DNA from: Ignavibacteriota bacterium
GTDB lineage: Bacteria > Bacteroidota > Ignavibacteria > Palsa-1295
Assembly: GCA_963787835.1 (NCBI GenBank)
Contig: CAWBEI010000002.1
Coordinates: forward strand, 544,001 to 608,000
Length of the DNA stretch: 64,000 nucleotides
Reading direction: 5' to 3'
Shown here: piece after piece, positions 3,191-63,003 of the stretch
Layout of the letters: every line of letters starts with the position of its first letter
Numbering within the stretch: the stretch's first letter is position 1
Notes under the pieces: model-generated
Database searches by the model: none
Seen by the model: only the letters and a program-made list of their open reading frames with translations
Told to the model about the DNA's origin: nothing
Made by a program: the position numbers and the translations under genes

Positions 3191-3694
3191 TCATCCCATA
3201 AAAAGATACGGCTCCCAGTCCTTATCGACCCTGCCGATGAATTGCCGCAGGAACGTCACATGGTTCGGGCGGATGGGACGGCGGGCCAGCACCATCTGGG
3301 CTTCATCTGGCGTCTGGCTGCCTTTTACGTTATTGCACCGAATGCACGCGCTGACCAGATTTTCCCACGAATCCTCGCCACCACGGCTTTTCGGCATGAT
3401 GTGATCGACAGTGAGCGTAACGCTCGTCGCGCCGCAATATTGGCAGCGGTGACCATCCCGCCGCAGAATATTCTTCCTCGAAAGGATCACCTTCTTGAAT
3501 GGCACCCGAACATACGAGGATAGCCGGATCACGCTCGGAAAGGGCATCGTAACAGAGGTCGAGTGAACGGCCTTTCCCGTCATGCTGCTGACGAGTTCCG
3601 CCTTATCCAAATACAGCAAAATGATCGCCTTTTCGACATTTGTGATCGCTAATGGCTCGTAATTGCCATTGAGAATGAGGACCTTACCACCCAG
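3191..3694 (-). CDS. HNH endonuclease (McrA-like); true start probably the CTG at 3694, upstream of the TTG at 3619
   Basis: SRKNILRRD..CQYCG..LTVDHIMPKSRGG..WENLVSAC..CN..K; the in-frame sequence upstream of 3619 encodes the family N-terminal motif KVLILNGNYEPL. Confidence 0.85.
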   Translation of the reverse strand: MGGKVLILNGNYEPLAITNVEKAIILLYLDKAELVSSMTGKAVHSTSVTMPFPSVIRLSSYVRVPFKKVILSRKNILRRDGHRCQYCGATSVTLTVDHIMPKSRGGEDSWENLVSACIRCNNVKGSQTPDEAQMVLARRPIRPNHVTFLRQFIGRVDKDWEPYLFMG

Positions 3695-4086
3695 TTTGGA
3701 GTGCGCCTGACTAAATTCCTGATCGTCTTCGGGGGTGTCGAATAACCCCAGCGAGCGCGGCTGGGAGGAGCTAAACTTATGGCGATGCTCCGGAGATCGT
3801 GGGCGATGCTCCGCACCGGATCTCGTTCTTCGAGACCCTAACGATGCGGGTCGCTTATATTTGTGTGCTTCGAATGCGGCAGACTCCTTCTAATCACTAT
3901 TTGTAATGTTCCGAATGCGTCACCAGTTCCCCTAACCAAATTATGCTATTGTTGCCTATAAAAAAACGCATCTGAGCTTCCTGGACTTCTATCCTGCATT
4001 TCATGAATCCGAGCGTTTTCTTTCACCCCGAAACGCATGGTTCCCGTTTTTCATGCTTCATAATTCATACTTCATAATTTCCCCAG

Positions 4087-4359
4087 GAAATAGGTGCCAT
4101 TTCTTTTTCTTGTGAGTTCCCGGTTATCCACATCGCACCCATCGAAATTCGCTCATTTTTGCCATTCGTTGAAACAAGTATTCATAAAAGTCCCTTCACA
4201 CAGAACTCGTTCATAACGAAACCTACCACTAATTGTCAATGAACGACCTAAGCCCCTACTCTTAATTCGTAATTCTTAATTCTTAATTGATCAAGGTGCC
4301 TATCATCTCACCACCTAATATACGACACTTTTCTCGCCCGCCACGAAATTCCAATTTTC
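4087..4359 (-). ncRNA. Putative structured ncRNA with its promoter, copy A (homologous to 39674-39950)
   Basis: Ordered conserved blocks shared with copy B, covarying stem, terminal GGCACC hairpins, no conserved long ORF. Confidence 0.55.
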
Positions 4360-4364
4360 GGGAA

Positions 4365-4447
4365 GTCCCGTTAGGGACGGCCCGTTTGTAGAACGCGATT
4401 ATTTTTTTTGTATCAAGGTTCTACAAACGCGCCACGCCTACGACGTT
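4365..4447. repeat. REP-like palindromic element
   Basis: GTCCCGTTAGGGAC head and inverted repeat CGTTTGTAGAAC...GTTCTACAAACG. Confidence 0.6.
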
Positions 4448-4506
4448 GTCATATATGCATCCAAAACAAATCCTATCCCCAATCCCGAAAATCCTGTGAA
4501 TCGTGG

Positions 4507-6564
4507 TCAATGCGCCACCACCACGCTCCGCGACTGCACATACCCTCCCGCCGACACCCGAACAAAATAGATTCCCGATGGAACGTTCGTTACATCGACC
4601 GAAATCCCATTGTGTAGGGACGTGCTGCGCACGTCCTGCCCCCTTCCTAACGCATCATACATTTCGATAACCGGCTGAACATTCCCCGATAGCTGCATCG
4701 TGATCTCATCCTGCGCCGGATTCGGCTGAATGCCCATAATGCTGAACGGTGCTCCTGAGTTCGAGGCAGTCACTGTATTTACCCCAGCCAGCGTATCAGC
4801 CACACCGACGCCAACGGCGCGGATCGTATCGACTTGAGCGGACTCGCCATCAAACCAATAGATGAATATACTTCCCCGCTCGGTATCCGCGATCGTGGGC
4901 TTGAAGGAAAGTGTGAATGACCTTGGAATGCTGCCCGGCGTAAAGCTCGTGGTGATATTTGTAAAACTAAAATCTTTAAATTGCGTGCTATCCGGATAAA
5001 AGATCATGCTATCAACGGTAGCCTGCTCGCAGCCATGCGCGGCGACCGTAAATGTATCTCGCTTGGTAGCAGCTTCGCGTAACTTTTGCGAACCGAAATC
5101 ATAAAGCGAATTTGTAATGAGATCGAGAAGACTGGGATTTGGCTGGATGACGAGTGTTACATGAAACGTCGTGTCAGCGTCTAAATAATCATCGTCGGTA
5201 TAATGAGTATGAATGGTGAGCGGATATGTGCCTGGTTTTTTCGGAAGGAACGTGACCCATGCCGAGTTTGCCTGACCGGTACTCCACGGATAATTCATGC
5301 TCGAAACAGAGTAGGTTGCTATGCTTGAATCGATACCATCAATTGTTACGTCTGTAAGCCCACCGTAGTCGTTCTTGTCTGCTATGAATTGAAGCCAGAG
5401 CGAAAGCGAGGCAGAGTCGCATAATTTAGTTACAAGCGAATCGCCGGAAGCACCGGCCATCAGAGTATGCCCTGTCGTCACCGTGGAATGCACCACCGAA
5501 GAAAGTGTCCCATCACCACCGTCCGTGGTTTTCCAAAGATTGTTTTGGTAATCGACCGCATAAACCACCGCGCCGTGACCTGTTACAGAGAGCGTTGCGC
5601 CAAAGTTAATATTATCGGGCCCCCCGACGTTCGTCCATGTCTCGCCATAATCAGTTGAGCGTTCCAATCCAATGTTGGCAGGCACACGTGTAGGAACGCT
5701 CGGGTCTTGTATTCCGCATTGAACATAAACCACAAAGCCATCACCGCCGCCTACATTGATATTAGTTCCAGCGACACCATTTCCAGTATCACGTGACCAT
5801 ACCGTAAAAAATGAGTATCCCCCGTCGGTGGAACGTTGAATAATGCTTCCATTAGAATATGGTGCAGATGCATCAAATGAAAAAATGTAATTGGGATTGT
5901 GTGGTATTGCATAATCAGACTCTCCTGGAGTATATCTGCCGGCTGAATTTTGCCATTCGATCCACGTCTGACCTAAATCCTGAGACGTAATGTTGATCTG
6001 TGAAACAAGAGATTCACGATTACCCGTGATAATTATCGACGAATTATTAGGATGCCATACCCAGGTCTTCCCTTGGTCTGTGGAATAACCATTAGGATAA
6101 AAAATTGCCGAACCAACTGCATAAAGTTGTCCATATTCGGTATCCGTTGAAATGTGTGACCAGGTATTTCCGCTGTCCAGCGTCTCGTAGATTCCTGCCA
6201 TTTCATCCTCAGGAATGTAGCCGCTGTAGTCAATGTACGGGTATGGCGCTGCACTCATATATCCCTGAGAAGGTGAAACGAAATACATACTACTAATCAG
6301 ACCCCAATGATTTTGGAGATTTCTATCCCCGAGATTCATCTTAATCCAATTCGTGCCGCCATCTGTCGTGCAGTAAACAGCAAGTGTGTCAGTGGCCCGC
6401 CAGCTCTCTCCTTGCCCAATGGTAAAGACAAAGCCATAATTCTCATTCAAAAAGTAAGTACCAATGTTTTGTTGGAACGATGCGATTTGTGTCCACTGCG
6501 AGTCTGCCCTGGAAGTGGCAAATAAAACCAACGAAAAAAGAAGGGATTTGACGAGGGTGCGCAT
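4507..6564 (-). CDS. Secreted BNR/Asp-box (YCF48/sialidase-like propeller) protein with Ig-like domains and T9SS C-terminal sorting domain
   Basis: Signal peptide; repeated T/S-x-D-x-G-x-T/N-W; C-terminal IQPNPA...SGIYFVRV...VVVAH. Confidence 0.85.
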   Translation of the reverse strand: MRTLVKSLLFSLVLFATSRADSQWTQIASFQQNIGTYFLNENYGFVFTIGQGESWRATDTLAVYCTTDGGTNWIKMNLGDRNLQNHWGLISSMYFVSPSQGYMSAAPYPYIDYSGYIPEDEMAGIYETLDSGNTWSHISTDTEYGQLYAVGSAIFYPNGYSTDQGKTWVWHPNNSSIIITGNRESLVSQINITSQDLGQTWIEWQNSAGRYTPGESDYAIPHNPNYIFSFDASAPYSNGSIIQRSTDGGYSFFTVWSRDTGNGVAGTNINVGGGDGFVVYVQCGIQDPSVPTRVPANIGLERSTDYGETWTNVGGPDNINFGATLSVTGHGAVVYAVDYQNNLWKTTDGGDGTLSSVVHSTVTTGHTLMAGASGDSLVTKLCDSASLSLWLQFIADKNDYGGLTDVTIDGIDSSIATYSVSSMNYPWSTGQANSAWVTFLPKKPGTYPLTIHTHYTDDDYLDADTTFHVTLVIQPNPSLLDLITNSLYDFGSQKLREAATKRDTFTVAAHGCEQATVDSMIFYPDSTQFKDFSFTNITTSFTPGSIPRSFTLSFKPTIADTERGSIFIYWFDGESAQVDTIRAVGVGVADTLAGVNTVTASNSGAPFSIMGIQPNPAQDEITMQLSGNVQPVIEMYDALGRGQDVRSTSLHNGISVDVTNVPSGIYFVRVSAGGYVQSRSVVVAH

Positions 6565-6733
6565 GATACGTTTTTCCTGAGAGGATGATGGAAGCTTTCT
6601 AATGAAGAGGTTCTTCCTATTGTTTAAAACGCGCTGGGTCGCTCGGGTTACAAAAATAATTTTATTATTTTTTAGAAATGCCCTTTAAAGCCTCAGAACG
6701 CTGATACCGCCTCCATAATTATTCGATCTGGGT

Positions 6734-8032
6734 TCAATGTACCACTTCTACTTTCGCGAACTGATCTCCCATTCGCAGAAAATAGAGTCCGGCTGGTAAT
6801 CGCGAAACATCCATCACGGCTCTTATCCCGTCCATCGTGGCATTCATTCGCTCGCATCCCATTACATCGAAAAGATGGAGAATTCCGGTTACTCCACCAG
6901 TAATTTGAAGCTCACCCGTCGCCGGAGTGGGAAATACCGAAAAGACACTACCGGAATTCATAGCACTTTCCACTACACTCGCAGCCGATGTGTCCTCCTC
7001 CCAAAGACCGCCATCAAAAAGTGCGCCATTGCCATACGTCATTCCCGCAATAGTAATGCCCTTAGAACTGTAAAATCGGTCATTAGAAAAATTCGTTCTG
7101 TATGATGGGCCTCCCTCGTTTTCCCAAGTAACACCTGAGTCCATGGAAACATACATCCCTGAATCGGTTTGAATGAACAGTCGCGAAAGGTTGCCTTGGA
7201 TTATGCCTGTCCCGGACGGTGCAATAAAATTGAAATGTGAATCCTGAACGGGGCCAAAATTCTTGGTTACCCTCCACGTCTGGCCGTAATCATCGCTACG
7301 GCGAATTATGATATTTCCAAGATCCGCTTCAAAGCAGATGGAAGTACCGGGAATTGTAAGAGGTTGAGTACACCAAACTGGCGTTTCCACGGTATGCCAT
7401 GATAAACCGCCATCCGTTGTTCGCATAATTCCAGTATATCCCTTGGATGTATCACTGGTTCCGGGATAGACTGCGACAATTCCGACAGAATCCGAGAAGA
7501 ATGAAAAGCCACCTGAACTGAGAGTGGTAGCCAGTTCCCAAGTATTTCCTAAGTCTTTAGAAACCTTTATCCCTGTGTCAGACGTGCTGAGAAAAAGCAA
7601 GTTAGTAAGTTCACAGTAGTGAACCGCTAATGCTCCCGTAATCGACCCAGGTACGTCCTGTTGAGTCCACGTTTCTCCACCATCCGTAGTTCGGTAGCAC
7701 GCGTCTGTATTGCCAAACATCGAGAACCATCCTGTTAAACTGTCCTTAAAGCAAATATCAGTGACATAGTATTCGGCGAAAGACTTACCTTTGTCCCATA
7801 CGCTTCTCCATGATTTTCCTCCATCGGTCGTCTTATGCAGTTCGGATTCCGTCCCTACAAATCCAATTCGATGTGGGCCAGGCAGATCAAGAAAGTACAC
7901 ACACGTAATATATTCTCCGATCTGATTACCCATACCATCTGAGGCCTTGAAATCAGCAATTTCCCGCCACTGAGCGTTCACATCGCTACTCAAAAGCGAG
8001 AGAACGATAAAGGCTGCCGTGGCGAGTCTCAT
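6734..8032 (-). CDS. Secreted BNR/Asp-box propeller protein with T9SS C-terminal sorting domain
   Basis: Signal peptide; six TTDGG-x-S/T-W-like repeats; C-terminal VFPTPA...AGLYFLRM...KVEVVH. Confidence 0.85.
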   Translation of the reverse strand: MRLATAAFIVLSLLSSDVNAQWREIADFKASDGMGNQIGEYITCVYFLDLPGPHRIGFVGTESELHKTTDGGKSWRSVWDKGKSFAEYYVTDICFKDSLTGWFSMFGNTDACYRTTDGGETWTQQDVPGSITGALAVHYCELTNLLFLSTSDTGIKVSKDLGNTWELATTLSSGGFSFFSDSVGIVAVYPGTSDTSKGYTGIMRTTDGGLSWHTVETPVWCTQPLTIPGTSICFEADLGNIIIRRSDDYGQTWRVTKNFGPVQDSHFNFIAPSGTGIIQGNLSRLFIQTDSGMYVSMDSGVTWENEGGPSYRTNFSNDRFYSSKGITIAGMTYGNGALFDGGLWEEDTSAASVVESAMNSGSVFSVFPTPATGELQITGGVTGILHLFDVMGCERMNATMDGIRAVMDVSRLPAGLYFLRMGDQFAKVEVVH

Positions 8033-8043
8033 TTATTTTTCAT

Positions 8044-10989
8044 TTATCTCACTAACATCAACTCCTTCGAACGAATATTCTGCCCGCCGTCAAGAGCCGT
8101 GGTCGCAACGCGGAGCATGAGTGCGCCGGTGGGAAGGTTTTGCGGGAGCGCGAGGTCGCGGTCGTTGGTGCCGGAGGTGCAACTCATAGTGCCACTCCAC
8201 AGCGTGCGGCCAAGAATATCGGTAAGCGAAAGGTTTAGGGTGGCGCCTATCGGCGTTTGTATCACCAGATGCAGGTTATCTTCGTTCGTGATCTCAGCGC
8301 GCTCGATGGCAATGGGCTGGCCGAGCAGCGCAGTCCGCAGGAGCGAATCGCCGCATAGGTTCTGCCCGAGAAACAGCGTGGTTGCCTTCGGCGAAACGTA
8401 ATCGATCTGGCATCCGGCATTCGTTCCGGAAAGGGAACTGGAAACCACGATCGGCGAATAGGAGGAATCGGCAACAAAGGTCTTGAACCACAAATGTGCA
8501 AGAATTCCCGGCGTGCTCGCAAGCGCCGCCAGCGAAGTAAAATGCAGCGTGTCGGTCGCAATGCCATACGAGATCTTTGGCATCGGCCACGTGGTGGTAA
8601 GCGTTCCGTTCAGGTCGGCGTGGTCGTAGGTCAGCACGTTGTGGTCGTAGGTGAGGTACAGATCGAATTGCAGGACGTCGGAAGCAGCAGGAAGCCCCGT
8701 CAGGCCAATATCCGCCAGCGCCTGATCGCCCAATGAAACCGAGGACGTGGTGATCGTCAGCATGGTGTGCGTGGTGTCGGCATTACGAACGATCGGGAAC
8801 ACAAGCGCGTAACTGTGCGAGAGCGTATCTCCGCACCGGAGGTAATAAATAGTTACATGGATGGTATCAGCGCCGGTCACGTTCTGCGGCTCGAATTGCA
8901 AAAGCAGCAGCGAATCGCTCCCGGAAAGCGCGCCTGGGGAAGGAACTTGTAACTGATACATACCCGTCGCCTGCCCGCTTTCGGTATAAAACACATTCGT
9001 AAGCAACGCTCCGCGCGTTGAGCTGATAAAATGCTCCGTCGCGGTATCGAACGCTACCACGATCTTCGCAAGCACGAAGCCATCGCTCGCGGTAACGACA
9101 GAATCCGTGGTGATCGCAATGGTAAGCGGCTCGCAAACGGTCGCAGCGGTATGCGAGAGCAGAAATTGCCTATCGAGCGAGTCGGTGGAGGGCTCGATCG
9201 CAAACGTCACGGGCTGGATGGAAAGGGATTCCGTATCGTCACCGCAGTAGCTTGGGGTGGAATTGTTCCCAACGGTCGTTGCGGTAACGGATTTCCATCC
9301 CGAGAAGATCAACCGGAACAGATCGCTGCCGGTAATGAACGGATCGCCATAGATCGTTACCGTTGCAAACCCCGGCGTTGACGAATCCACAGAATAACTA
9401 CCATTGTTGAGAATGGCTCCCGGCTGCAAGCCTACAAGATGCAGCGTAGTGGGATCGTAGGTGATCGGGACCGTCAGCGAGATCAGGTTCTCGCCATTGG
9501 GAACGGCCGGAGCGAGCGTTGCATCGACATTGAAATCCGAGCAGGTTTGCACAGAATCAGCCGTAAGCACTACAACATGGGAGGTCGTATCCCGAATGGG
9601 CATTGTGCCGGCCGTGCAGGCCATGAAGGAATAGGCATCGCCCGCATCGAAGCCGGTGACGAGTGCGAAGAGCGGGTCCGGCGATATGATCTCATGTTCC
9701 CCCGGCGGAATCGAAGGCGTAAGCGCGCTGTAATTACCTCCGTTGATGACCGAAGAGAGAGCGCCCGTGAGCGAGAGAGGCGTGCCATCGAGCGTAGCAG
9801 TGGCAAGGTCAGCCGTCGGGCAAATGATGGGAACCCAGTGCAGGAACGTGGGAGGAAGCTCCGGCGTATTCCAGATCAGGGTATCGGTGTAATACTCGGT
9901 ATCGAGCACGGTAACGAGTGTTGGATCGCCGACGAAGGTACCTAAATTAAAGTCATAGAAATCGCTCCCGCGCGTCAATTGATGCGCTTCGACAAGGAGC
10001 GGGTTGCCTTGCAGATCGAACGTGTGGATCTCCGCAGTTCCGGAAAATTCTGCAGCGACTCGGCCATTGGTCGATGTCGCAAACCCACCGTTGAACTGCG
10101 CGTAGAAATCCCGGTCGCTCGTGAGCACCATCTGCACACCGGAATCCGAATTCCCAAGCGGCTCTACGAGAAAGTGCGAACCCCACCACTTCTTTCCGAT
10201 CAGCTCATCCATCAGTTCGTTGCAGGACTGATCCCCGACCGGTACATACCCACAGGTGAGTCCGGAAATAACGCTGACAGGCTTTGTCGATTGAATCTTC
10301 GACCCGGAAAGCGAAGGATCCGAAGGATGATCGGAAGTATCCGCTTTCACGATGTAGCATTCTCCGTGGTTGAGCGTAACGGTGACCGGCATGCCGCCCG
10401 GCAACCCGTTCAGGTTGCTGATCGAGGGAGTGATTGTCACCAGTGTGGAATCGTATGCGGCTGTGATGAGAAATTCATTGTTGTTACGCTCCGAGAATTC
10501 ATCCGCCGGGTCATCCCAAATGCCCCATCCGAAGGTTACATAACTTGTGTCGAGCGCATTATCTGGAAGTATTTGTGTGGCATCGCCGGCATCGAACACA
10601 TAATCGTGAAATACAAGATTAACCGGTTCCGTGGTATGGATAATCAGCCCCTTGTTGGTTTTGCCAAGATCGTTCAACTGCAGAAGATTGTATGGCAGAT
10701 CGATGACGGTCGCCGCGCCCGGCCCAAACGAGAAATCCTGAATATAACCGGATGGCGAAATAACCACGCCACAACCCGAAAACTGGCTCACGACCGTAAG
10801 CATAAGCGTCGATTGCTGGGCGGACGCACTGCTATCGCCAACGAGATCGTCAGCACCCTGAATGATTCCAAAGCTAAAGTTCTGTCCGGCGCGCGGAAGT
10901 ATCGTCTGGCCATTGCCAACAGACGCAGAAAATACTACCCCTGCGACGAGAAGCATAGCACAGGAATGCGACATGAACGATCGGACCAT
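8044..10989 (-). CDS. Secreted IgGFc-binding-like domain protein with cohesin-like repeats and a probable T9SS sorting domain (start approximate)
   Basis: DATQILP..LDTSY, EFLITAAYDST.VTITP, GSKIQSTKPVSVISG..C resemble the IgGFc-binding N-terminal domain; ITYDPTTL / LTYDHNVL cohesin-like strands; TDILGR...KELMLVR C-terminus. Confidence 0.75.
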   Translation of the reverse strand: MVRSFMSHSCAMLLVAGVVFSASVGNGQTILPRAGQNFSFGIIQGADDLVGDSSASAQQSTLMLTVVSQFSGCGVVISPSGYIQDFSFGPGAATVIDLPYNLLQLNDLGKTNKGLIIHTTEPVNLVFHDYVFDAGDATQILPDNALDTSYVTFGWGIWDDPADEFSERNNNEFLITAAYDSTLVTITPSISNLNGLPGGMPVTVTLNHGECYIVKADTSDHPSDPSLSGSKIQSTKPVSVISGLTCGYVPVGDQSCNELMDELIGKKWWGSHFLVEPLGNSDSGVQMVLTSDRDFYAQFNGGFATSTNGRVAAEFSGTAEIHTFDLQGNPLLVEAHQLTRGSDFYDFNLGTFVGDPTLVTVLDTEYYTDTLIWNTPELPPTFLHWVPIICPTADLATATLDGTPLSLTGALSSVINGGNYSALTPSIPPGEHEIISPDPLFALVTGFDAGDAYSFMACTAGTMPIRDTTSHVVVLTADSVQTCSDFNVDATLAPAVPNGENLISLTVPITYDPTTLHLVGLQPGAILNNGSYSVDSSTPGFATVTIYGDPFITGSDLFRLIFSGWKSVTATTVGNNSTPSYCGDDTESLSIQPVTFAIEPSTDSLDRQFLLSHTAATVCEPLTIAITTDSVVTASDGFVLAKIVVAFDTATEHFISSTRGALLTNVFYTESGQATGMYQLQVPSPGALSGSDSLLLLQFEPQNVTGADTIHVTIYYLRCGDTLSHSYALVFPIVRNADTTHTMLTITTSSVSLGDQALADIGLTGLPAASDVLQFDLYLTYDHNVLTYDHADLNGTLTTTWPMPKISYGIATDTLHFTSLAALASTPGILAHLWFKTFVADSSYSPIVVSSSLSGTNAGCQIDYVSPKATTLFLGQNLCGDSLLRTALLGQPIAIERAEITNEDNLHLVIQTPIGATLNLSLTDILGRTLWSGTMSCTSGTNDRDLALPQNLPTGALMLRVATTALDGGQNIRSKELMLVR

Positions 10990-11205
10990 GGGATGCAGCT
11001 TATTTCTTATTTCTATCGAACGTTTGAGAGCAGGAAAGTAGTGTCCGGCATGAACGACAACGACGAAGTCCGGCCACAATTTTTATTATCCTCCAAGGTT
11101 ATCTACGGATGACCTAATAACACCTAATACCATAAAAGGTAACGCAAATACATATTAAAACCGTTGCTTACTGAATTCACATCCCCAAAATGCCGTTTAA
11201 CCTAC

Positions 11206-12345: not shown

Positions 12346-13478
12346 GTACCGAGTTAAAAAATAATGAAGGAATACCAGACGAGCCCCACTCGGTACTCGG
12401 TACTCGCCCACTCGGTACTCAAATATGGATCGACATGGAGAATTCCCCGCATGTCCCATTCTTCCTGCCGATCATTCTGGAATTGGAACGAAATGGTTGT
12501 GAAGTGATCCTCACCGCTCGTGATTTTGCTCAAACCCGCGAGCTGGTCGAACGCGCAGGGCTGAACGCACGAATCATCGGCGGAGAATATGGAAATAATA
12601 CAGCGATAAAATCGCTGGGGCTGCTTTTTCGTGCGCTTCGTTTAGCATGGTTTATGCGGGGACGCAAAATTTCGCTCGCCGTTGGTCATGGCTCGCGTGG
12701 ATTGCTGCTTGCTTCGCGAATGCTCGGGATAACAGTTCTTGAACTTTACGATTACGAAGGTGCAAGCGTCCGGCTCTTCAATCGTCTCAGCAATTTCGTG
12801 ATGACCCCGGAAGCTATTCCATTTTCTACCCTCGAAACGCTCGGACTATCGAAAGAAAAACATCTCGTCTATCCCGGATTGAAGGAGGATGTTTATGCCA
12901 GCGATTTCAAACCGAATGGCAAAATAATTAGCGAACTTGGCCTTGATCCATCTCGTATTCTCATCACCATTCGCCCGCCTTCGAGCACGGCGCATTACCG
13001 GAGTGAGGAATCATTCCGGTTATTCGGTGGAATTATGGAGATCATTGGAGATCGTGATGATATTCAAATTGTTTTTCTTCCTCGAACAAAAAACCACCCC
13101 CCAGCCCCCTCCTACTCCGCTTCGCTTCGTAGGAGGGGGAGTATTATTACCCCTCCTTTCGCCGTCGATGGTTTGAACCTTCTCTATCATTCCGATCTTG
13201 TTATTTCCGGCGGTGGCACGATGAACCGCGAAGCTGCCGCGCTTCGCATTCCGACAGTTACCATCTTCAAAGGCCCAATGGGGGCAGTCGATCAATGGCT
13301 GATAGACTCCGGCAAAATGATCGCGATCGATAATGCAGAGGAAATCGTGCCGATGCTGCGAAAACGGCAACCGACTATTACTCGATGTTCAGACTCTGCT
13401 AAATATGTTATTCTCGATGCGATTTTGAACATTGCAAATGGTAAAGCATCCTCGTCCCGAAGGGACAGAAGGAAATAG
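12342..13478 (+). CDS. DUF354 family GT-B-fold protein (LpxB-like glycosyltransferase)
   Basis: IWIDMENSPHVPFF, ILTARD, DLVISGGGTMNREAA. Confidence 0.85.
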   Translation: MSTELKNNEGIPDEPHSVLGTRPLGTQIWIDMENSPHVPFFLPIILELERNGCEVILTARDFAQTRELVERAGLNARIIGGEYGNNTAIKSLGLLFRALRLAWFMRGRKISLAVGHGSRGLLLASRMLGITVLELYDYEGASVRLFNRLSNFVMTPEAIPFSTLETLGLSKEKHLVYPGLKEDVYASDFKPNGKIISELGLDPSRILITIRPPSSTAHYRSEESFRLFGGIMEIIGDRDDIQIVFLPRTKNHPPAPSYSASLRRRGSIITPPFAVDGLNLLYHSDLVISGGGTMNREAAALRIPTVTIFKGPMGAVDQWLIDSGKMIAIDNAEEIVPMLRKRQPTITRCSDSAKYVILDAILNIANGKASSSRRDRRK

Positions 13479-13635
13479 CCGAGGACGTAAGTCCCCGGAC
13501 GGGAAGGTAACGCGATAAAAGAGTCCCGAAGGGACTGAAGAACGGGATTTCTTTCGCCCCTTCGGGACTTTGAATAATAACCTATTTCTCCGGGGGCTAA
13601 CGCCCCCCGGCTATTTCCTTCTGTCCCTTCGGGAT
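13454..13635. repeat. REPIN/MITE-like palindromic element (GTCCCGAAGGGAC family); supplies the stop codon of the DUF354 gene
   Basis: Terminal inverted repeat TCCCGAAGGGACAGAAGGAAATAGCCG ... CGGCTATTTCCTTCTGTCCCTTCGGGA with internal paired copies. Confidence 0.85.
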
Positions 13636-29743: not shown

Positions 29744-29757
29744 CAAAAATACGACAA
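29744..29757 (-). promoter_or_regulatory. Bacteroidota-type -7 promoter (TGTCG-TATTTTTG) just before the dapB ATG, implying a near-leaderless mRNA
   Basis: Matches the TAnnTTTG consensus, 4 nt from the start codon. Confidence 0.55.
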
Positions 29758-38042: not shown

Positions 38043-39668
38043 ATGTTACGGCTTCGGCTCATTTTGTGGTACTCGTTGCTCGTCGTGCTCACGATCGGGG
38101 CGATCGGGCTATTTCAATATTTCAAGATACAGCAATCCCTGTTCAGCGCGCTGGATACTTCGCTCATCGAGGATGCCCGTATCACGCTGACGCTCATATC
38201 CACGCTGCCAGCAACCTCGAATCCTCACGAGATGATCCAGCATGGCGAGGCCCATTCCGCCAACTCCCTTCGCGACCTTATCGACCGCGCACTTACTGAA
38301 GTGCCGGATACGCTCAAAGGCACCGCCCTTGCCGATCGCGTCGTCAGTGAGATCATCGATCAGGTGCTGACCGAACTCTCCTTTCAGGATTCTACTGGCA
38401 GAACCGCCGATCCGCTGGATGCCATCGTGGAGCGAACGGTTTCGAGCCGCAGAAATAATTTCGTCGAAATTTATGCCATCACGAAAGATTCTGCCGGCGT
38501 TCACCATGATGCGCAGTTCTTCCGAACGCCAAATCTTGGCATCGATACCATGATGCGGCTCGTCCGAGGGGCGCGTGTGCGAGCGGAGTCCGACACAACC
38601 TCCGCCTACCACACCATCCGCATCAAAAATGAACCTGTGCGGGTAGCCCGTGCCCGTAACGAGCGCTTCGATGTCTATGTCGGCTATCCCGTTACCGACA
38701 TCGAGGAAAGCCTGACGCGCGTGCGATCCTCCTTCTACATCGGCCTCCCGCTTGCGCTCGCGATCTCGATCTTCGGCGGCTTGTGGCTTGCCCGCAAAGC
38801 CCTCCGCCCGATGGAACAGATCGCCGATACCGCTCGCGAGATCGGCGCGAAAAATCTTTCACAGCGCATCGAACTGCCCGACAAGACCGACCGCGAAATG
38901 GCCACGCTCATCGAAACGCTGAACTCCATGTTCGCGCGTCTGGAAAGTTCCTTCCAGCAAGTGACCCAGTTCACCTCCGATGCCTCCCATGAACTCAAAA
39001 CTCCGCTCTCCATCATGAAGGGCGAGATCGAGCAAGCTGCGCGCCACTTAGAGGCTGCCGATACGCTCGACCCCGAAGAAGCGCGACAGGTACTCGCCAG
39101 CGCGATGGAAGAGGTCGATCGCATGCAGCGCATCGTCGAAGGCCTGCTCTTGCTCTCCCGCGCCGACGACCGACAGCTTCCGCTGGAACTCCAAAGCATC
39201 GAGATCTATCGGTATCTCGATGGTCTCCTCGAAGATGGCGAGATCCTTGCCGAAGAGCGCGGCTTGCAGCTCGTCAAGCAGTTCGATGAAGCAGCCCGAA
39301 CCAAGAAGATCAAGGCCGACCCCACCCGCCTCTATCAGGTCGTCATGAACTTGCTCGATAACGCGCTGAAATACACTCCCGCCGGCGGAAAAGTTACCTT
39401 GTTCCTAACCAGCATCGACCACCAGATCCGGTTTGGAGTTGCCGATACCGGTATTGGAATCGCAAAAGAAGATCTGCAGAAAGTCTTTCGCAGGTTCTAC
39501 CGTACCGACGAAGCCCGCACCGGCCCCCACGAAGATGCCGAACGCTCGCTTGGCCTTGGCCTCGCCATCGTTAAATCCATCGTCGAAGCGCATGGCGGCA
39601 CCATTGCCGTCGAAAGCGAAGTCGGCAAAGGCGCCCGGTTCACGATTACGATGCCAGTGGTGGATTAG
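38043..39668 (+). CDS. HAMP-domain sensor histidine kinase (no adjacent response regulator)
   Basis: Two TM helices, HAMP, H-box [14 protein letters not shown]-box [27 protein letters not shown]. Confidence 0.95.
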
Positions 39669-39673
39669 CTGTC

Positions 39674-39950
39674 AAAAAGAAATAGGTGCCATTTCTTTTT
39701 CTTGCTGAGTTCCCGACCACCCTCGTTTTCAAGCTGTTTTCGCCATTTTCTGAATAAGTTATCCACAAAATGCTTTCATGGAGAACACGTTCATAACGAA
39801 ACCCACCGCCGGCTGCCAGATTGTCAATGAACATGACACCAACACTCATCTTTTATCTTTCATATTTCATCTTTTCCCCGGATAGGTGCCTATAGTTTCA
39901 CTTTCAATATACGACACTTTTTGTGGGACATTGCGAAATCCGAAATTCTC
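39674..39950 (-). ncRNA. Putative structured ncRNA with its promoter, copy B (homologous to 4087-4359)
   Basis: Same ordered blocks as copy A; 3' hairpin AAAAAGAAAU-GGCACCU-AUUUCUUUUU; lies antisense to both neighbouring genes. Confidence 0.55.
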
Positions 39951-39984: not shown

Positions 39985-40200
39985 ATGATAATCATGGAGA
40001 CCAGAACCAAACCAAACATGCGCACGAGGAGCCCAAAACCCTCCACCACGCGAAGCAAAAAATCTTCACTCGAAGGGGTGCTTGACCGTATTGCTGAAAT
40101 GGGCCAAAAAATACCCTCCGATGAACGCGCGCTGATTCCACGCGACGCCGCAATGAATGTGGAGCACTATCTCTACGGAGCGCCCAAAGAACGATCTTGA
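39985..40200 (+). CDS. Putative antitoxin (VapB-like)
   Basis: 71 aa with C-terminal P.D.A.N.EHYLYG motif common in PIN-associated antitoxins; overlaps the toxin start. Confidence 0.8.
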   Translation: MIIMETRTKPNMRTRSPKPSTTRSKKSSLEGVLDRIAEMGQKIPSDERALIPRDAAMNVEHYLYGAPKERS

Positions 40201-40607
40201 ATATTGTTTTTGCCGACACTGGGTTTTGGGTTGCCCAGCTTTTACCGGATGACGCACTCCATCCGATCGCACGTGAGTGGTCGCGGACCTACGCGAAGAA
40301 GAGCACGATCGTAACCTCCGATCTTGTGCTCACAGAGTTCCTGAATTTTGTGAGCAGATTCGGCACATATTCCCGCGAACAGGCTGTCATGGCATGTCAG
40401 AACCTCTATGACGCCGAAGAGATCATGATCGTACCCGCGCACCGAGCCCTTATTAGGGAGGCCATGGAAATGTACCGCGATTTTTCCGACAAGCGTTGGA
40501 GCTTTACCGATTGCTCCTCCTTTATCATCATGCGAGAGAGGAAAATTACCGACGCTCTAACCCACGATCATCATTTCGTGCAAGCCGGCTTCAAGAGATT
40601 GTTGTGA
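40197..40607 (+). CDS. vapC: PIN-domain toxin (VapC)
   Basis: VFADTG, D.LH, VLTE, SFTDC.SF..M, ALTHD.HF.QAGF. Confidence 0.93.
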   Translation: MNIVFADTGFWVAQLLPDDALHPIAREWSRTYAKKSTIVTSDLVLTEFLNFVSRFGTYSREQAVMACQNLYDAEEIMIVPAHRALIREAMEMYRDFSDKRWSFTDCSSFIIMRERKITDALTHDHHFVQAGFKRLL

Positions 40608-40652
40608 CCAGCATCCACCTCTTACTTCTTAACTCTTACTTCTTACTTTCCC

Positions 40653-43073
40653 CTACTCCCCCCACAACCCCGCAACCCGCCCCTTTATCTTCCCCTCCAA
40701 ACGCGAAATAAGCCCCTTCAGCATCTCCATCTCTGCCCGCTCCCGTTCGAGGCGCGCGACGATGGTTTGCTGCTCGGCGAGAGGGGGAATGGGAATTTTT
40801 AGGGATGACATAAATGTGAAATTTGTACGAGGAAGCTGTGAGCCGCTAATGCCTTTTAGAATTTCATGATTCATTTCTGGCAAACGGAGCTGAATGGCAA
40901 GGAAAGTTGGGTCGACAACTTTCTTCGGACGGAGCACAAGAATATCTGTGCTACAAATCCCATCGAACCGCGCAATCCACACTTTATTTAAATTTGGACG
41001 GAGTTTGCCATAAAGTACGTCGTTTATCTTAAAAGCAGACTTATTGCTTTTGATCGTGTTCGCGGGGACGTCATATTCCCCTATTAATTCGCCCGTGTCC
41101 GACTCGATATTTTCCAGTCCTACATAATTTACGTTCCCTTTGATTGTGTTCGGAATTATCTGGGCGGACACATTATCACACACTTCCCCCAACTCCCGCA
41201 TCTCCCACTTCGGATCGATCTCGATCTCCGGCTTGTAGTTCGCGAGAATGGCGCGCGCGCCTTCGATCATCTTCCGGAACCGCTCCAATTCGGCAACTAA
41301 TGCTTCCTGAACGGGGAGCGGAGGGAGGGGGATTTGGAATTCGGCAAGGTCCTCCAACTTCATATTTACGTTTGCAGCACCCTTCATGAGACCTGCCATT
41401 CTATCCTTCTTCCCATCAAGAACATAGTAAAGATATTTGGGAATAAGAACTTCTTCATTTTTTGGCTGAAGCACCGCCAAAAGGTTTGCCACCGCAAATT
41501 TGCCGGAGGCGTAATGGATACGAGACAAGGTGGCGCGCCCATGTCCAGTTGACGAGATTAAAGGGACGCACACGGCATCGCCATCAATTTCGAATGTTGA
41601 GGCCGTAAGCGGTGATTTTGCCGTAACAATGAGCGGATATTGGCCGGGCTCGGTCTGTGTGCTAGAATAGTGGCCCTTTGCAAGTGTGCATACCTCCTCA
41701 AGTGTGACCAGAAGAGTTCCCCCCTTGGCCAGCGCGGGACGGTATGGTTCCGAACTTAGGATAGACCCATTGGCAAGAATAGTACTTCTGTCTACGAGCC
41801 ATGAATGCAAAGATACGGGCTTATCTTCATAATAGGCTTTGAAATCCAAAAGGACGTGAGGCAGGTCGTTGCGCTCAACTATTGCCTGCTTGATACCTAG
41901 ACTCACCCCGATAGCCTTAACCTCAGAGAACATTATCTTAGGGTTGCTTCTAGCCTTATTTTTATCAAGTATAAGGACTGAAGTTTTAACCCCGGAGTAT
42001 GGCTGAAAAACGCCGGAAGGTAAAGAGATCACGCCAATAAGCGCTTCCTTTATAAGGGCCTCTCTCAATAGTCGATACGCGGACCCATCTTGGAAAATAA
42101 TTCCTTCCGGAACGATAATACCGGCTTTGCCTTGCGGCGTGAGATGTTCGAGCATGTAATCCACGAAGAGTACTTCGCTGCGCTTCGCGGAAATGCGAAA
42201 ATTACCGTGAGGGCGGATGCCACCCTTTGGCGACATGAATGGCGGATTGGCCAAAATAACATCGGCCTTGTCATCCCACCGTTCTTCGCTCGTAAGCGTG
42301 TCGTATTCGTGAATGGATGGATTGGAAAACCCATGCAAATACATATTGACAAGCGACATCCGCACCATGTCCGGCGAAATATCGTAGCCAACAAGATTAT
42401 TGCCAAGTTCTTTGCGGTCCTTCGTGGTGAGCAGGTCGCCTTCACGGGTTTTGGTATTCGTCTTAAGGATATATTTGAACGCAGCGATCAGGAATCCAGC
42501 CGTTCCGCAAGCCGGGTCGAGAATGCGGTCGGTTTTCGTCGGTCCTACAACTTCGACGATAAAATCAATGATATGGCGCGGCGTCCGGAATTGCCCGGCA
42601 TCACCCTGCGACCCTAAGACGGAAAGCAGATATTCATAAGCATCCCCCAGCATTTCGCTGTGGTCGTAACTAAACTCATTGATGACCGATAGGAAAAGCC
42701 GAAGCGTTTCGGGGTCGCGGTAGGGAAGGAATGCATTCTTAAAAATATCGCGAAAGAGCGGTGGCAAATTCGGATTGAGAGACATTTGCGCCAGCGCATC
42801 GCCATACAACCCGATGAGTTCGTGCCCGCCGATCTTCGTGGAATACACGCTCGTCCACGCATACTTTTTATATTTCCCGACAAAGAACGTAGCTTTACCG
42901 CCGAGACGCTCGGCTTGTTGATCCATATCGTGCATGAACTTGTAGATCAGCGCAAGCGTGATCTGCTCGACCTGCGATTTCGGGTCAGGCACCTTGCCGA
43001 CAAGGACATCGCGGGCTTTATCGATTCGTTGTTTTGTTGCGCTATCGAGCATTGGTTGTTGTGTAGAAAACAT
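40653..43073 (-). CDS. Type I RM fused N6-adenine methyltransferase and specificity subunit (HsdM-HsdS); start may be 43052
   Basis: GQFRTPRHII, DPACGTAGF, NPPF; two TRDs each followed by IP(L/I)PPL..Q...VA.LER. Confidence 0.92.
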   Translation of the reverse strand: MFSTQQPMLDSATKQRIDKARDVLVGKVPDPKSQVEQITLALIYKFMHDMDQQAERLGGKATFFVGKYKKYAWTSVYSTKIGGHELIGLYGDALAQMSLNPNLPPLFRDIFKNAFLPYRDPETLRLFLSVINEFSYDHSEMLGDAYEYLLSVLGSQGDAGQFRTPRHIIDFIVEVVGPTKTDRILDPACGTAGFLIAAFKYILKTNTKTREGDLLTTKDRKELGNNLVGYDISPDMVRMSLVNMYLHGFSNPSIHEYDTLTSEERWDDKADVILANPPFMSPKGGIRPHGNFRISAKRSEVLFVDYMLEHLTPQGKAGIIVPEGIIFQDGSAYRLLREALIKEALIGVISLPSGVFQPYSGVKTSVLILDKNKARSNPKIMFSEVKAIGVSLGIKQAIVERNDLPHVLLDFKAYYEDKPVSLHSWLVDRSTILANGSILSSEPYRPALAKGGTLLVTLEEVCTLAKGHYSSTQTEPGQYPLIVTAKSPLTASTFEIDGDAVCVPLISSTGHGRATLSRIHYASGKFAVANLLAVLQPKNEEVLIPKYLYYVLDGKKDRMAGLMKGAANVNMKLEDLAEFQIPLPPLPVQEALVAELERFRKMIEGARAILANYKPEIEIDPKWEMRELGEVCDNVSAQIIPNTIKGNVNYVGLENIESDTGELIGEYDVPANTIKSNKSAFKINDVLYGKLRPNLNKVWIARFDGICSTDILVLRPKKVVDPTFLAIQLRLPEMNHEILKGISGSQLPRTNFTFMSSLKIPIPPLAEQQTIVARLERERAEMEMLKGLISRLEGKIKGRVAGLWGE

Positions 43074-43296
43074 CGCCCTTTCAGGGCTAACATTTATTTA
43101 ACGTTATCATACCCAGGGTTCCGCTTCGCATCGTGGGCGATGCTTGCTTCACCCTGGGCTGCGGGTACTTCGGCGCTCCGCGGCTAAAATCCCCAGTGCC
43201 GGAGGCACGTTGTACTTGCAGCCCAGGGTGCAGGCCGAAGGCCGGAACCCTGGGTTACGCAACCCTCCAACAGATCCCAGCCCTGAAAGGGCGATG
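43071..43296. repeat. MITE/REPIN-like element between hsdR and hsdMS
   Basis: 18-bp terminal inverted repeat CATCGCCCTTTCAGGGCT / AGCCCTGAAAGGGCGATG; internal CCCAGGGT...ACCCTGGG hairpins. Confidence 0.85.
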
Positions 43297-43302
43297 TAAT
43301 AC

Positions 43303-45816
43303 TCAGGCATTCGGTAAAAAATTATTCAGGGACACATAGGTGTCAATGTATTCAGGTATCACGTCGCGGTATCCGTTCAAGGATTCCAAATCTTTCAGGT
43401 TTAGCATTGGGTTCGTCGCAAGCCTGCCATATTCCTTGTTCCGCATGACTTCCTGCACTTCGGAATCGCTTAAATATGCTTTGAACGCCTTACTGATAAA
43501 CGGATAATATTTTGCATCCGGTTTATTTACCTGAATAAAACTTTCAAGCTCCAGATCGAGTAATTGTTCGCGTGAAGAAATTGGTTTTTTCTGGAAGATT
43601 TGATCGAGCACTTCCTCGATGGATGGTTTTCGGTCAAGCCCGAGCGCCTTTCGTATTTTTTCGAGATTGAAATATTCTTCCGGCTTTTCGAAAATTTCAC
43701 GGCGAATGTAATCGCTTGCTTCGCGTAGATTCCCACTTTCGTATTTTTCCGTCACGTTCGGGTCGCTTTTTATCACATCTTCAAATTTTTGGAAAAGCAT
43801 TCGGTCCGGCTTCAGTCCTTCCAAGCCAACTTGAGTCTCTTTCAAATCTTTGAGTGGATCAATCCTCTCGCTTACATACGCGCCCTCTGGGATGAGAGGC
43901 CCTGGCGGACTCGGCGGGCTGGCACTGCTTCCTAAAGGCAATTGCAACCGTTGGTCGTAGTCGAATTTGTGTTCGAAGAATTCAACATTTCCGAAAAAAT
44001 CGAAAAGCCGGAATGTGGTTTTGGGCTCGATAATCGTCTCACGCTCGCCGTTAGCAAGTTTAGTCTCAAACTTGAAGTTCTTCTTTCTCGTACCTCGTCC
44101 CTTCATTTGTACGAATTCCGTGGGCGAGAAGATCGGACGCATAAAACAAAGATTCAGCAAATCCTCGCAATCGTATCCCGTAGTCATCATCCCGACGGTT
44201 ACGCAAACGCGTGTCTTGGATGTCTTATATCCCTCCAACACATCGGAATTCCCATTCAAATTATTATTCGCAAATTTCTTTGTCATTTGCTGTGCGCCCG
44301 TTATTCGCGACGTCACTTGCAGCGCAAAATCCGAATGGTATCGCCCTGGCCACATTATTTCGACAATATCATTGAGAACAGATACAATGCGTTCCGCGTG
44401 ATTCTGACTCACGCAAAAGATAATGGTCTTGCCAATCTCCTTCGTTATTGGGTCGCGCAGCGCATGTTGTAAAAAGGTCTCGCAAAAAACTTGGTTGGTC
44501 TTATCGCTAAAAAACTTCTTTTCGAAGTCTTTATTTACGAAATACTCGCTCGCTTCATCACCATTATCGGCCTCATAAACTACTGCGTATCCTTCATCAG
44601 AAAGAAGTTGTGTAGTAATCTCGGTTCGTGCATCCAGCACATAGGGATTCACGAGGTATCCTTCTGTTACACCGTCAAGTAAGGTGTAGCGAAATGTTGG
44701 GTCGCCGCTTTCGCATCCGAAAGTCTTATACGTGTCAAGCAGTTGCCTCCGTTCAAGTTCAATCGGTGAATTTTTGACAAGCTCATCAGAATCCGTCCTC
44801 TTGATGTAATCTTTTGGCGTTGCCGTAAGCCCAAGTTTATATCCAACAAAATGTTCAAACACTGCACGTGCATTTCCACCGATAGAGCGGTGTGCTTCGT
44901 CAGAAATCACAAGGTCGAAATCCAGCGGCGAAATATCGCGAAATCGGTTACTTGCCAGCAAACTCTGCACCGTCGTCACCACGATTTGTGCATCTTGCCA
45001 ATCTGCGCGGTCACGGTTCTGCTTCCATATTTTCGTGGTGTAATCGTTCTTGAGATAGTCTTTGAAATTCTTCTCTGCCTGATCTTCCAATTCTAATCTA
45101 TCAACCAGGAACAGAACACGGCTTGCATTTCCCGTTCTCAAAAATAGTTTTATGATCGCAGCAGCGGTAAGCGTTTTACCCGTTCCGGTCGCCATCTCAA
45201 AAAGAAATCGGTCGCTTCCTTTCTTTACAGCATCCTGTAGCGCCTTGATTGCCTTTACCTGATATGGGCGCAGCAAACGCAGATTCTTTTCCTCGATAAA
45301 ACCTTTTCTCGTCTTTGTATCAATATAAGAAGGGTTGTTCGCAAAAGTTGGGTCTTGGGTGATTGCGATATAGTCATCATGCACGTCTTCTCGAATCAGA
45401 GCATGGCGGTCGGGCTTAAACTGTTCCTTTACAAAGAAATCACTTTGATTCGGGAATTTTGAAATAATCTGTGGGTTCCCGGCCTGGATATCCCAGAGAT
45501 AATGGATGTTTCCGTTTGTCAGAATGATATATCTCGCATTCTTCCCTTTTGCATAGGCTCGCGCTTGTTCTTTTCCATCTAGGGGATTTTTCTCTTCACG
45601 TTTCGCCTCAACCACACAAAGCGCGTCGCCGCGTTTATCGAGCAACAAGTAATCGATATATCCATTTTTCGTGTGCTCGAAGTCATCGCCCAATGCTTCG
45701 AGCTTCACATTGGCTTCGAGCAGGATGTTGGCCTTCCCTTCCGACGTATCGAAGAACTTCCATCCTGCCTTATCAAGCAGCTGATTAACTTTTATCCTGG
45801 CGCGGGCTTCTGACAT
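43303..45816 (-). CDS. hsdR: Type I restriction enzyme R subunit (EcoAI/EcoEI-like)
   Basis: YIDYLL..VVEAKR nuclease motif, MATGTGKT, DEAHRS, GLTATP, MMTTGYD, QMKGRGTR. Confidence 0.93.
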   Translation of the reverse strand: MSEARARIKVNQLLDKAGWKFFDTSEGKANILLEANVKLEALGDDFEHTKNGYIDYLLLDKRGDALCVVEAKREEKNPLDGKEQARAYAKGKNARYIILTNGNIHYLWDIQAGNPQIISKFPNQSDFFVKEQFKPDRHALIREDVHDDYIAITQDPTFANNPSYIDTKTRKGFIEEKNLRLLRPYQVKAIKALQDAVKKGSDRFLFEMATGTGKTLTAAAIIKLFLRTGNASRVLFLVDRLELEDQAEKNFKDYLKNDYTTKIWKQNRDRADWQDAQIVVTTVQSLLASNRFRDISPLDFDLVISDEAHRSIGGNARAVFEHFVGYKLGLTATPKDYIKRTDSDELVKNSPIELERRQLLDTYKTFGCESGDPTFRYTLLDGVTEGYLVNPYVLDARTEITTQLLSDEGYAVVYEADNGDEASEYFVNKDFEKKFFSDKTNQVFCETFLQHALRDPITKEIGKTIIFCVSQNHAERIVSVLNDIVEIMWPGRYHSDFALQVTSRITGAQQMTKKFANNNLNGNSDVLEGYKTSKTRVCVTVGMMTTGYDCEDLLNLCFMRPIFSPTEFVQMKGRGTRKKNFKFETKLANGERETIIEPKTTFRLFDFFGNVEFFEHKFDYDQRLQLPLGSSASPPSPPGPLIPEGAYVSERIDPLKDLKETQVGLEGLKPDRMLFQKFEDVIKSDPNVTEKYESGNLREASDYIRREIFEKPEEYFNLEKIRKALGLDRKPSIEEVLDQIFQKKPISSREQLLDLELESFIQVNKPDAKYYPFISKAFKAYLSDSEVQEVMRNKEYGRLATNPMLNLKDLESLNGYRDVIPEYIDTYVSLNNFLPNA

Positions 45817-46059
45817 AAATTTGTTTATTTTCGAATGGGGCGTAGAACATGCAAACGCCCACAAAAATACCACGAAAATATCACCCATTCTCCCCACCCC
45901 GCCCCTATTAATTCGCATTCAGAATCCCGGAAAACCGGAATTGTTGAAATGGTGGGCAGGTTAATCAAGCAGATCAACTTCTTTCTCTCTTTCTTACGGG
46001 GCTTACCTTCGTCATTCCTTTGGATCGTATCCAGGAATGACCATTTATAGAATAGTACA

Positions 46060-62987: not shown

Positions 62988-63003
62988 GTGTCGTAACTTT
63001 GCA
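62988..63003 (+). promoter_or_regulatory. Bacteroidota-type -7 promoter (TGTCG-TAACTTTG) for the DUF47-pit operon
   Basis: Matches TAnnTTTG about 45 nt upstream of the ATG at 63048. Confidence 0.6.

Follow-up and report, generated by a model that had tools for sequence, protein, structure and literature searches.

A dispersed DNA cassette with a likely LexA box and a gene of RecA-type fold in an Ignavibacteriota genome, and its possible role as a one-sided recombination anchor

The window analysed here, a stretch of 64,000 nucleotides from an Ignavibacteriota genome, contains two copies (A and B) of a non-coding unit on the minus strand, each set between a core gene and a group of accessory genes (Table 1). 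The original prediction had described two non-coding segments with ordered blocks in common. Every listed block is indeed found, in order, in both of them, and the distance from GAAAT to CGAAAT is 257 and 255 bp, as claimed. The proposed minus-strand promoter is likewise supported by a predicted sigma70-type promoter. Not included in that description was a perfect DnaA box in each of the two copies (TTATCCACA in copy A). The TGTCGTA context, said to link the unit to the promoters of dapB and DUF47, is present at 29750 (dapB start) and at 62989 (upstream of DUF47), but its frequency is at chance level, with seven matches in the window and the same count reached by 21 of 100 shuffles.

Table 1. 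Features of the two window copies (positions in the window; a dot marks features without strand).
Feature	Position	Strand	Remark
Copy A, whole unit, promoter to sharp end	4078-4355	-	promoter-side limit approximate
Copy A, predicted sigma70-type promoter with extended -10 TGTCGTATATT	4317-4349, core 4317-4324	-	
Copy A, putative LexA box GTG(A)-N8-GCAC	4296-4311	.	spans the predicted start site
Copy A, variable insert	4260-4289	.	tandem heptamer repeats
Copy A, body: GTTCATTGACAAT block and two TTC-N5-GAA dyads	4195-4244	.	15-bp period
Copy A, body dyads TTC-N5-GAA	4195-4205 and 4210-4220		
Copy A, perfect DnaA box TTATCCACA	4124-4132	+	
Copy A, conserved end block	4078-4122	-	terminates in composite site GGCACC-N2-TTTC-N5-GAAA
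Copy A, core side: HNH gene, then rhomboid and ispG	3191-3619	-	
Copy A, accessory side: three secreted-protein genes	4507-11079	-	T9SS tail on two
Copy B, whole unit	39669-39945	-	
Copy B, -10 element (39906-39913) and putative LexA box (39886-39901)	39886-39913	-	
Copy B, body: DnaA box (39759-39767), dyads, GTTCATTGACAAT block	39759-39832	.	
Copy B, TTC-N5-GAA dyads	39775-39785 and 39790-39800		
Copy B, conserved end block with composite site	39670-39715	-	
Copy B, core side: histidine kinase gene	38043-39668	+	80-88% identity in 5/5 relatives
Copy B, accessory side: PIN toxin gene and restriction-modification genes	40197-45918	.	

The HNH gene beside copy A is 92-97% identical in all five relatives compared, and the DNA upstream of it is different in each of the five. 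At copy B, 11 bp separate the end block from the stop of the convergent kinase gene. The copy B site holds a full counterpart of the element in G006 and a variant in G002; at the copy A site, G002 has half an element and G006 a diverged piece. No element is present at either site in G009, G005 and G014. Both sites are variable in these element-free relatives too, so hotspots can exist without the element. Between the promoter of copy A and the T9SS gene lies a cluster of REP-like palindromes (window 4360-4720), and many other copies are flanked by similar repeats. Elsewhere in the window, at the end of a gene, there is an Rfam match to Acido-Lenti-1 (13453-13498, minus strand), a two-hairpin repeat that also occurs in relatives.

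The unit is far more than a pair. A nhmmer search of this Kapabacteria-like genome of 3.57 Mb returned 50 full-length and 25 partial matches, and about 81 merged loci are obtained once variant bodies are added. Copies share 58-94% identity (median 71%) and have a mosaic structure: the identities of their two halves hardly correlate (rho 0.11), and only 6 of 50 copies have the same nearest neighbour for both halves. No pair among the 50 exceeds 94% identity, so a recent spread of the whole unit is not apparent. Read in the orientation of the window's minus strand, the layout is promoter, box over the predicted start, variable stretch, body and sharp end. A TTG at -35 or an extended -10 is kept in 44 of 47 copies, and the variable stretch frequently carries heptamer or REP-like inserts. 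Within the bodies, TTC-N5-GAA reaches 262 strand counts in 49 of 50 copies, compared with 15 in shuffled sequence and with 2, 32 and 4 for the spacings N4, N6 and N7; tandems with a 15-bp period occur at 42 places inside elements and nowhere outside. Ten of the 50 copies have a perfect DnaA box, at one of two positions (0.79/kb vs 0.04/kb in other intergenic DNA), and one further copy has a near-consensus box in opposite orientation. The composite end GGCACC-N2-TKKC-N5-GA(A/C), which is without the left half of the GTGC-N8-GCAC dyad discussed below, has 80 matches in the genome at one spacing and 2-11 at neighbouring spacings. Since the copies are related by descent and not independent, these enrichments overstate significance. 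Spacers of fixed length and free content are the signature of protein sites on DNA.

By eye, the ends of the 50 copies show neither terminal inverted repeats nor a target duplication; the repeated end words are direct and the flanking sequences unrelated. The end itself is precise and lies 11 bp from a convergent stop codon in 4 of 17 cases. Several other candidate explanations were rejected. In a supposed conserved small ORF, one-nucleotide indels segregate among the copies (by eye). A replication-strand bias is not seen, orientations being mixed on either side of the skew minimum. GGTGCC resembles the XerC/dif motif but lacks an XerD-like arm at 6 bp, and the elements showed no convincing site of dif type. 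For a likeness to oriC, there are few DnaA boxes near dnaA and no element is located there.

The unit had been proposed to encode a structured RNA of no known family that displays two GGCACC loops. The Rfam search, run at two thresholds, agrees that no known family is involved: none matched either copy at gathering score, and the best weak match was PhrS with 13 bits vs a cut-off of 37. The structure itself is not supported. Single-strand folding z-scores of copies A and B on both strands (+0.95, -0.22, -0.26 and +1.17) are not better than those of shuffles, and RNAalifold found no consensus pair in an alignment of 35 of the 50 copies from this one genome (15 are absent, seven of them for long inserts or odd heads). 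We also scored the three helices of the original prediction together with an added GAGTTC/GAACTC helix. In these four, 90.8% of the cells pair, but the covariation is reached by 345 of 500 shuffles, a double change occurs in only one cell, and in 11 copies one pair of the central stem is lost. At the base of this stem the change is compensatory between A and B but not over the whole alignment of 35 copies. The pairing can be traced to inverted words that are conserved. The 5′ GGCACC loop turned out to be the right half of a 16-bp DNA dyad, GTGC-N8-GCAC, whose left half is present with at most one mismatch at the exact spacing in 45 of 50 copies, compared with 0-3 at shifted spacings. That the unit is repeated and undescribed is supported, and so is the fallback reading of the earlier work, a DNA-level site or a non-autonomous element. 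The unit may be transcribed.

A multicopy, SOS-induced non-coding RNA under LexA control, which would act through sequence words or weak local hairpins, appears very unlikely to us on these grounds. The high proportion of pairing cells would agree with it, as would the variation in the 5′ hairpin, which falls into G-U pairs on the transcribed strand, the persistence of the inverted pair GAGTTC/GAACTC in variant bodies and the retention of promoters in several distinct sequence forms. Against an RNA function speak not only the missing consensus structure, the covariation at the level of shuffles and the z-scores near zero, but also spacers fixed in length and free in content, the lack of a conserved terminator, and bodies that are wholly different between genera.

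As a DNA site, the dyad has a wider distribution. RGCACC is located within 300 bp upstream of 30/30 lexA loci of the bacterial family, including this genome (57 sites vs 7 in coding controls), and upstream of 25/30 recA loci (28 sites vs 0). In the genus, two or three dyads stand in tandem with a 16-bp period in several lexA leaders. Outside the elements of this genome, GGCACC follows the promoters of lexA, two dinB genes, DUF72, ssb, recQ and the PA0069 radical SAM gene, and the word also heads some BRO, SIR2 and methylase genes. The combined pattern of -10 and box occurs in 34 of 35 genomes of the family with 1-57 matches each (reversed control 0), and beyond the family in 5 of 134 other genomes of the class with one match each. 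With its conservation at lexA and recA promoters, its tandem arrangement at lexA and its occurrence at repair genes, the dyad has the sequence properties of a LexA operator. The position of its right half upstream of lexA and recA throughout the family makes GTGC-N8-GCAC the likely LexA box of this lineage. In a weight-matrix test, elements hold 31 of the 38 strongest sites predicted for the genome; the test is circular in part, as lexA leaders look like the element. The lexA leader of this genome (G000:C6:58240-58560, L011) contains three tandem 16-bp dyads and element-type blocks, and is thus itself a member of the element family in this subclade. At recA, an IS200-type transposase gene (L012:692-1159 = G000:C2:353291-353758) is arranged divergently and shares the dyad region.

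LexA boxes have been described for Bacteroidetes (PMC8565304) and for Balneolaeota, where the box is the direct repeat TTACACATATTTTWTACATA (PMC7739468). As far as these reports describe them, the genes are comparable, the box lying upstream of lexA, recA, translesion polymerases, a helicase and a radical SAM gene, whereas the sequence here, GTGC-N8-GCAC, differs from both. The main text of the former does not contain GGCAC, Ignavi- or Kapabact-, and that of the latter does not contain GTGC. In the open-access literature we found no description of the element or the box, and none of LexA in Kapabacteria.

The genome contains three distinct genes of an unnamed family (255-270 residues). A fourth copy belongs to a 15-kb inverted repeat at a contig end and was counted once with its duplicate; this duplication (G000:C2:1-15231, 98.5% identity), with which the contig begins and which doubles typA and one cassette gene, is probably an artefact of long-read assembly. 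All three paralogs are preceded by a GGCACC head and followed, at most about 100 bp past the stop codon, by an element body, and the body of one is 89% identical to gene-less copies. Since all three genes sit between head and body, the gene-less copies are likely derivatives of a cassette built around this gene. Family matches were obtained in 29 of 35 genomes of the bacterial family, several paralogs in most, with 144 representatives at 50% clustering; one homologue is labelled Candidatus Kapabacteria by its source. In relatives, the head word precedes 18/25 and 17/20 homologues vs a background of 61/2011 (3%), and bodies were detected after 2/25 and 6/20 (controls 0/59). Body models are genome-specific, hence the link of gene and body is firm here and only partly shown elsewhere. 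In G006 and G002 (L263, L264) an apparent CRISPR array directly follows the cassette gene.

The cassette protein has no match in Pfam, NCBIfam or PHROG, and a PDB sequence search gave nothing below E 0.7. The structure model (pLDDT 83) predicts a RecA-type fold for which DnaB, KaiC and RAD51 match about equally. An intact Walker A motif (GxxxxGKT/S) is absent in all 27 aligned family sequences, in which the protein differs from SF4 (DnaB) helicases of the same fold. Inactive RecA-fold proteins with a link to the SOS response are exemplified by ImuA/SulA-type proteins. The cassette protein is comparable to these and to the C-terminal domain of DnaB in its fold, the lost Walker A and its SOS-type control, but it matches no Pfam, NCBIfam or PHROG family and is embedded in a repeat cassette. 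That the unit is a DNA cassette with an SOS box, tied to a gene of RecA-type fold, we hold with good confidence.

A polarity is evident in the surroundings of the copies. In a survey of 40 of the 50 copies with 76 neighbours, the end side adjoins core genes (rpsL, rplM, rplJ, thrS, dxr, mdh, sdhA, trmD and others) and the promoter side faces T9SS cargo, PIN toxins, restriction systems, SIR2 and Cas9; the Cas9-like gene is found on the promoter side of one element in this genome (G000). In 47 of 49 copies (p 2.5e-9) the promoter side has the lower GC content, over about 3-4 kb, and this applies to 16/16 copies facing a convergent gene. Around gene-bearing cassettes the polarity is weak (15/22, p 0.05). 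Close homologues in this genome were found for 62 of 81 end-side flanks vs 18 of 81 promoter-side flanks. Promoter-side flanks are common to different sites in 11 pairs (9 copies), with matches of 90-96% out to 2.6 kb; no end-side pair is shared. At the far end of the islets a conserved partner site was not identified, and only homology of cargo is seen.

The same polarity is observed in relatives, where heads directly followed by an ORF were excluded: GC is lower on the promoter side in 22/24 copies of G020, 21/25 of G009, 9/10 of G045, 8/10 of G002 and 4/4 of G006. G020 and G045, which represent two other genera, have the same head with unrelated bodies. Sites are partly common to different species (G009 9/22 and G002 5/9 vs a background of 7%). 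An element is located upstream of rpsL in three genera (L102, L154, L230), again with unrelated bodies. In the genera g7 and g2 (L152-L181, L212-L232) the bodies consist of a repeated unit of about 45 bp with a GTGCACA start and a GTTACAG end; IHF sites, judged by the consensus, are exact in 0/31 and have one mismatch in 3/31, and are not claimed. Four of the 16 fully shown G020 loci have a perfect DnaA box at the end or in the body region. In G045 (L232) an SOS-type head precedes a gene that by eye resembles a ParB-like phage protein. Each of G000, G002, G009 and G020 encodes two or three tyrosine recombinases (two each in G002 and G020), none of them among the 76 neighbours, and a recombinase partner of the element was not found. 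A leader of phage pac or gene-transfer-agent type was rejected: Terminase_6N has no match in the high-copy genomes G000, G002, G006, G014 and G020, and one each in G009 and G045.

We tentatively prefer to regard the unit as a dispersed DNA cassette that serves as a damage-switched, one-sided recombination anchor for islets of 3-4 kb beside core genes; taken as a whole, this explanation falls somewhat short of being probable. Three DNA-level alternatives were weighed against it. A selfish non-autonomous element with one-ended mobilisation like that of IS91/ISCR, in which the sharp end is the origin, an enzyme in trans (e.g. RAYT or an IS200-type transposase) does the copying and the variable upstream DNA is a passenger, would account for the order of cargo, promoter, gene and fixed end, for the precise end close to convergent stops, for one-sided cargo sharing and for presence or absence at orthologous sites. 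A transposase of IS200/REP type is encoded in the genome, and REP-like repeats lie beside many promoters. We nevertheless rate this alternative as unlikely: near-identical copies are missing (maximum 94%), no terminal inverted repeats or target duplications are seen, the cassette gene has a P-loop fold and is not an HUH enzyme, and sites are often common across species.

Alternatively, the copies might be regulatory DNA, i.e. portable SOS promoters together with a sink that titrates LexA and DnaA and sharpens the SOS threshold, with the polarity as a by-product. Such a role would suit the concentration of predicted operators inside elements, the element-like leaders of lexA and the radical SAM gene, and the orientation of the copies, since 33 of 49 point at a same-strand gene and the gap holds a promoter word of the gene's own for only 8. 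Effects of decoy sites have also been described, in yeast (PMC3322331). It is clearly unlikely, however, as the polarity is equally present in the 16/16 convergent copies, where no promoter is supplied, as rpsL, rplM, rplJ and thrS are improbable SOS targets, and as a sink needs no intact promoter, yet 44/47 copies keep one. Most improbable to us are neutral relics: copies of an SOS cassette that have decayed, accumulate together with REP and heptamer repeats where intergenic hotspots tolerate them, and are kept alike by gene conversion. Mosaic copies of 58-94% identity, their invasion by heptamers and REPs and the hotspots without an element are what one would expect of relics; the strict orientation (47/49), the intact promoters and boxes and the spacings conserved in several genera are not.

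The comparison with known systems reveals only partial correspondence. Correia elements of Neisseria are promoter-bearing dispersed repeats or MITEs (PMC5039591). Such repeats resemble our element in the tens of non-coding, intergenic, modular copies with a promoter able to read into neighbours. In contrast to them, our element has no visible terminal inverted repeats or target duplication, carries an SOS-type box at the start site and keeps a fixed polarity towards accessory islets, and unlike in MITEs the putative parent gene, situated between head and body, is of RecA-type fold and not a transposase. Further dispersed repeats of bacteria are BOX, RUP and ERIC. IS91/ISCR are rolling-circle elements with a Y2 HUH transposase. 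The fixed end downstream of a gene, the variable cargo upstream and the lack of target duplication are common to them and the cassette, whereas the cassette contains no HUH transposase and recent identical copies are missing; a search for the IS91 family gave no match in five genomes, but the controls gave none either. An integron has a platform of attI and Pc and a LexA-controlled integrase. Here, the likeness consists in SOS control, a fixed chromosomal platform and accessory genes changing on one side. However, there are about 80 platforms instead of one, the element promoter is directed away from the cargo, an integron integrase was not seen in G000, G002, G009 and G020 or among the 76 neighbours, and no attC array was noticed. 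We place the element with the promoter-bearing dispersed repeats, and there is a real chance that it represents a new platform for gene exchange.

For the preferred reading as an anchor, the following course of events is conceivable. LexA would bind the box and repress the cassette promoter. DNA damage would lift this repression, and the promoter would fire through the array, to which the cassette protein or a factor of the host, in some copies DnaA, may bind. Through the repeated cassette, homology is available at some 80 fixed slots, and the opened repeated DNA could give RecA a homology arm. Cargo on the promoter side would then be replaced from another site or strain, and the end would stay fixed at the core gene. 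The absence of a recombinase partner, of a site at the far end and of recent identical copies among our results counts against an anchor, as do variable sites without an element, and we regard the anchor function, considered on its own, as a possibility that we would not yet call probable. A bolder version is rather doubtful. According to it, the host runs an SOS-switched gene exchange with some 80 polar docking sites that go back to a single cassette. Each site would be pinned to a core gene and read by a family of inactive RecA/DnaB-fold proteins, so that secreted-protein and defence genes are reshuffled among fixed slots after damage. This would amount to a distributed, integron-like platform that lacks an integrase and has expanded anew, with other bodies, in three or more genera.

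The clustering of accessory genes at fixed chromosomal hotspots still awaits an explanation. In this organism a defined sequence of 280 bp marks one side of such hotspots in a fixed orientation and with a likely damage switch, so the problem becomes addressable through a single site and a single family of proteins. Should the anchor function not hold, our analysis still points to a likely new LexA box and to an unnamed, SOS-linked family of RecA-fold proteins, in a genome whose strong predicted operators mostly lie in repeats and not in the regulon.
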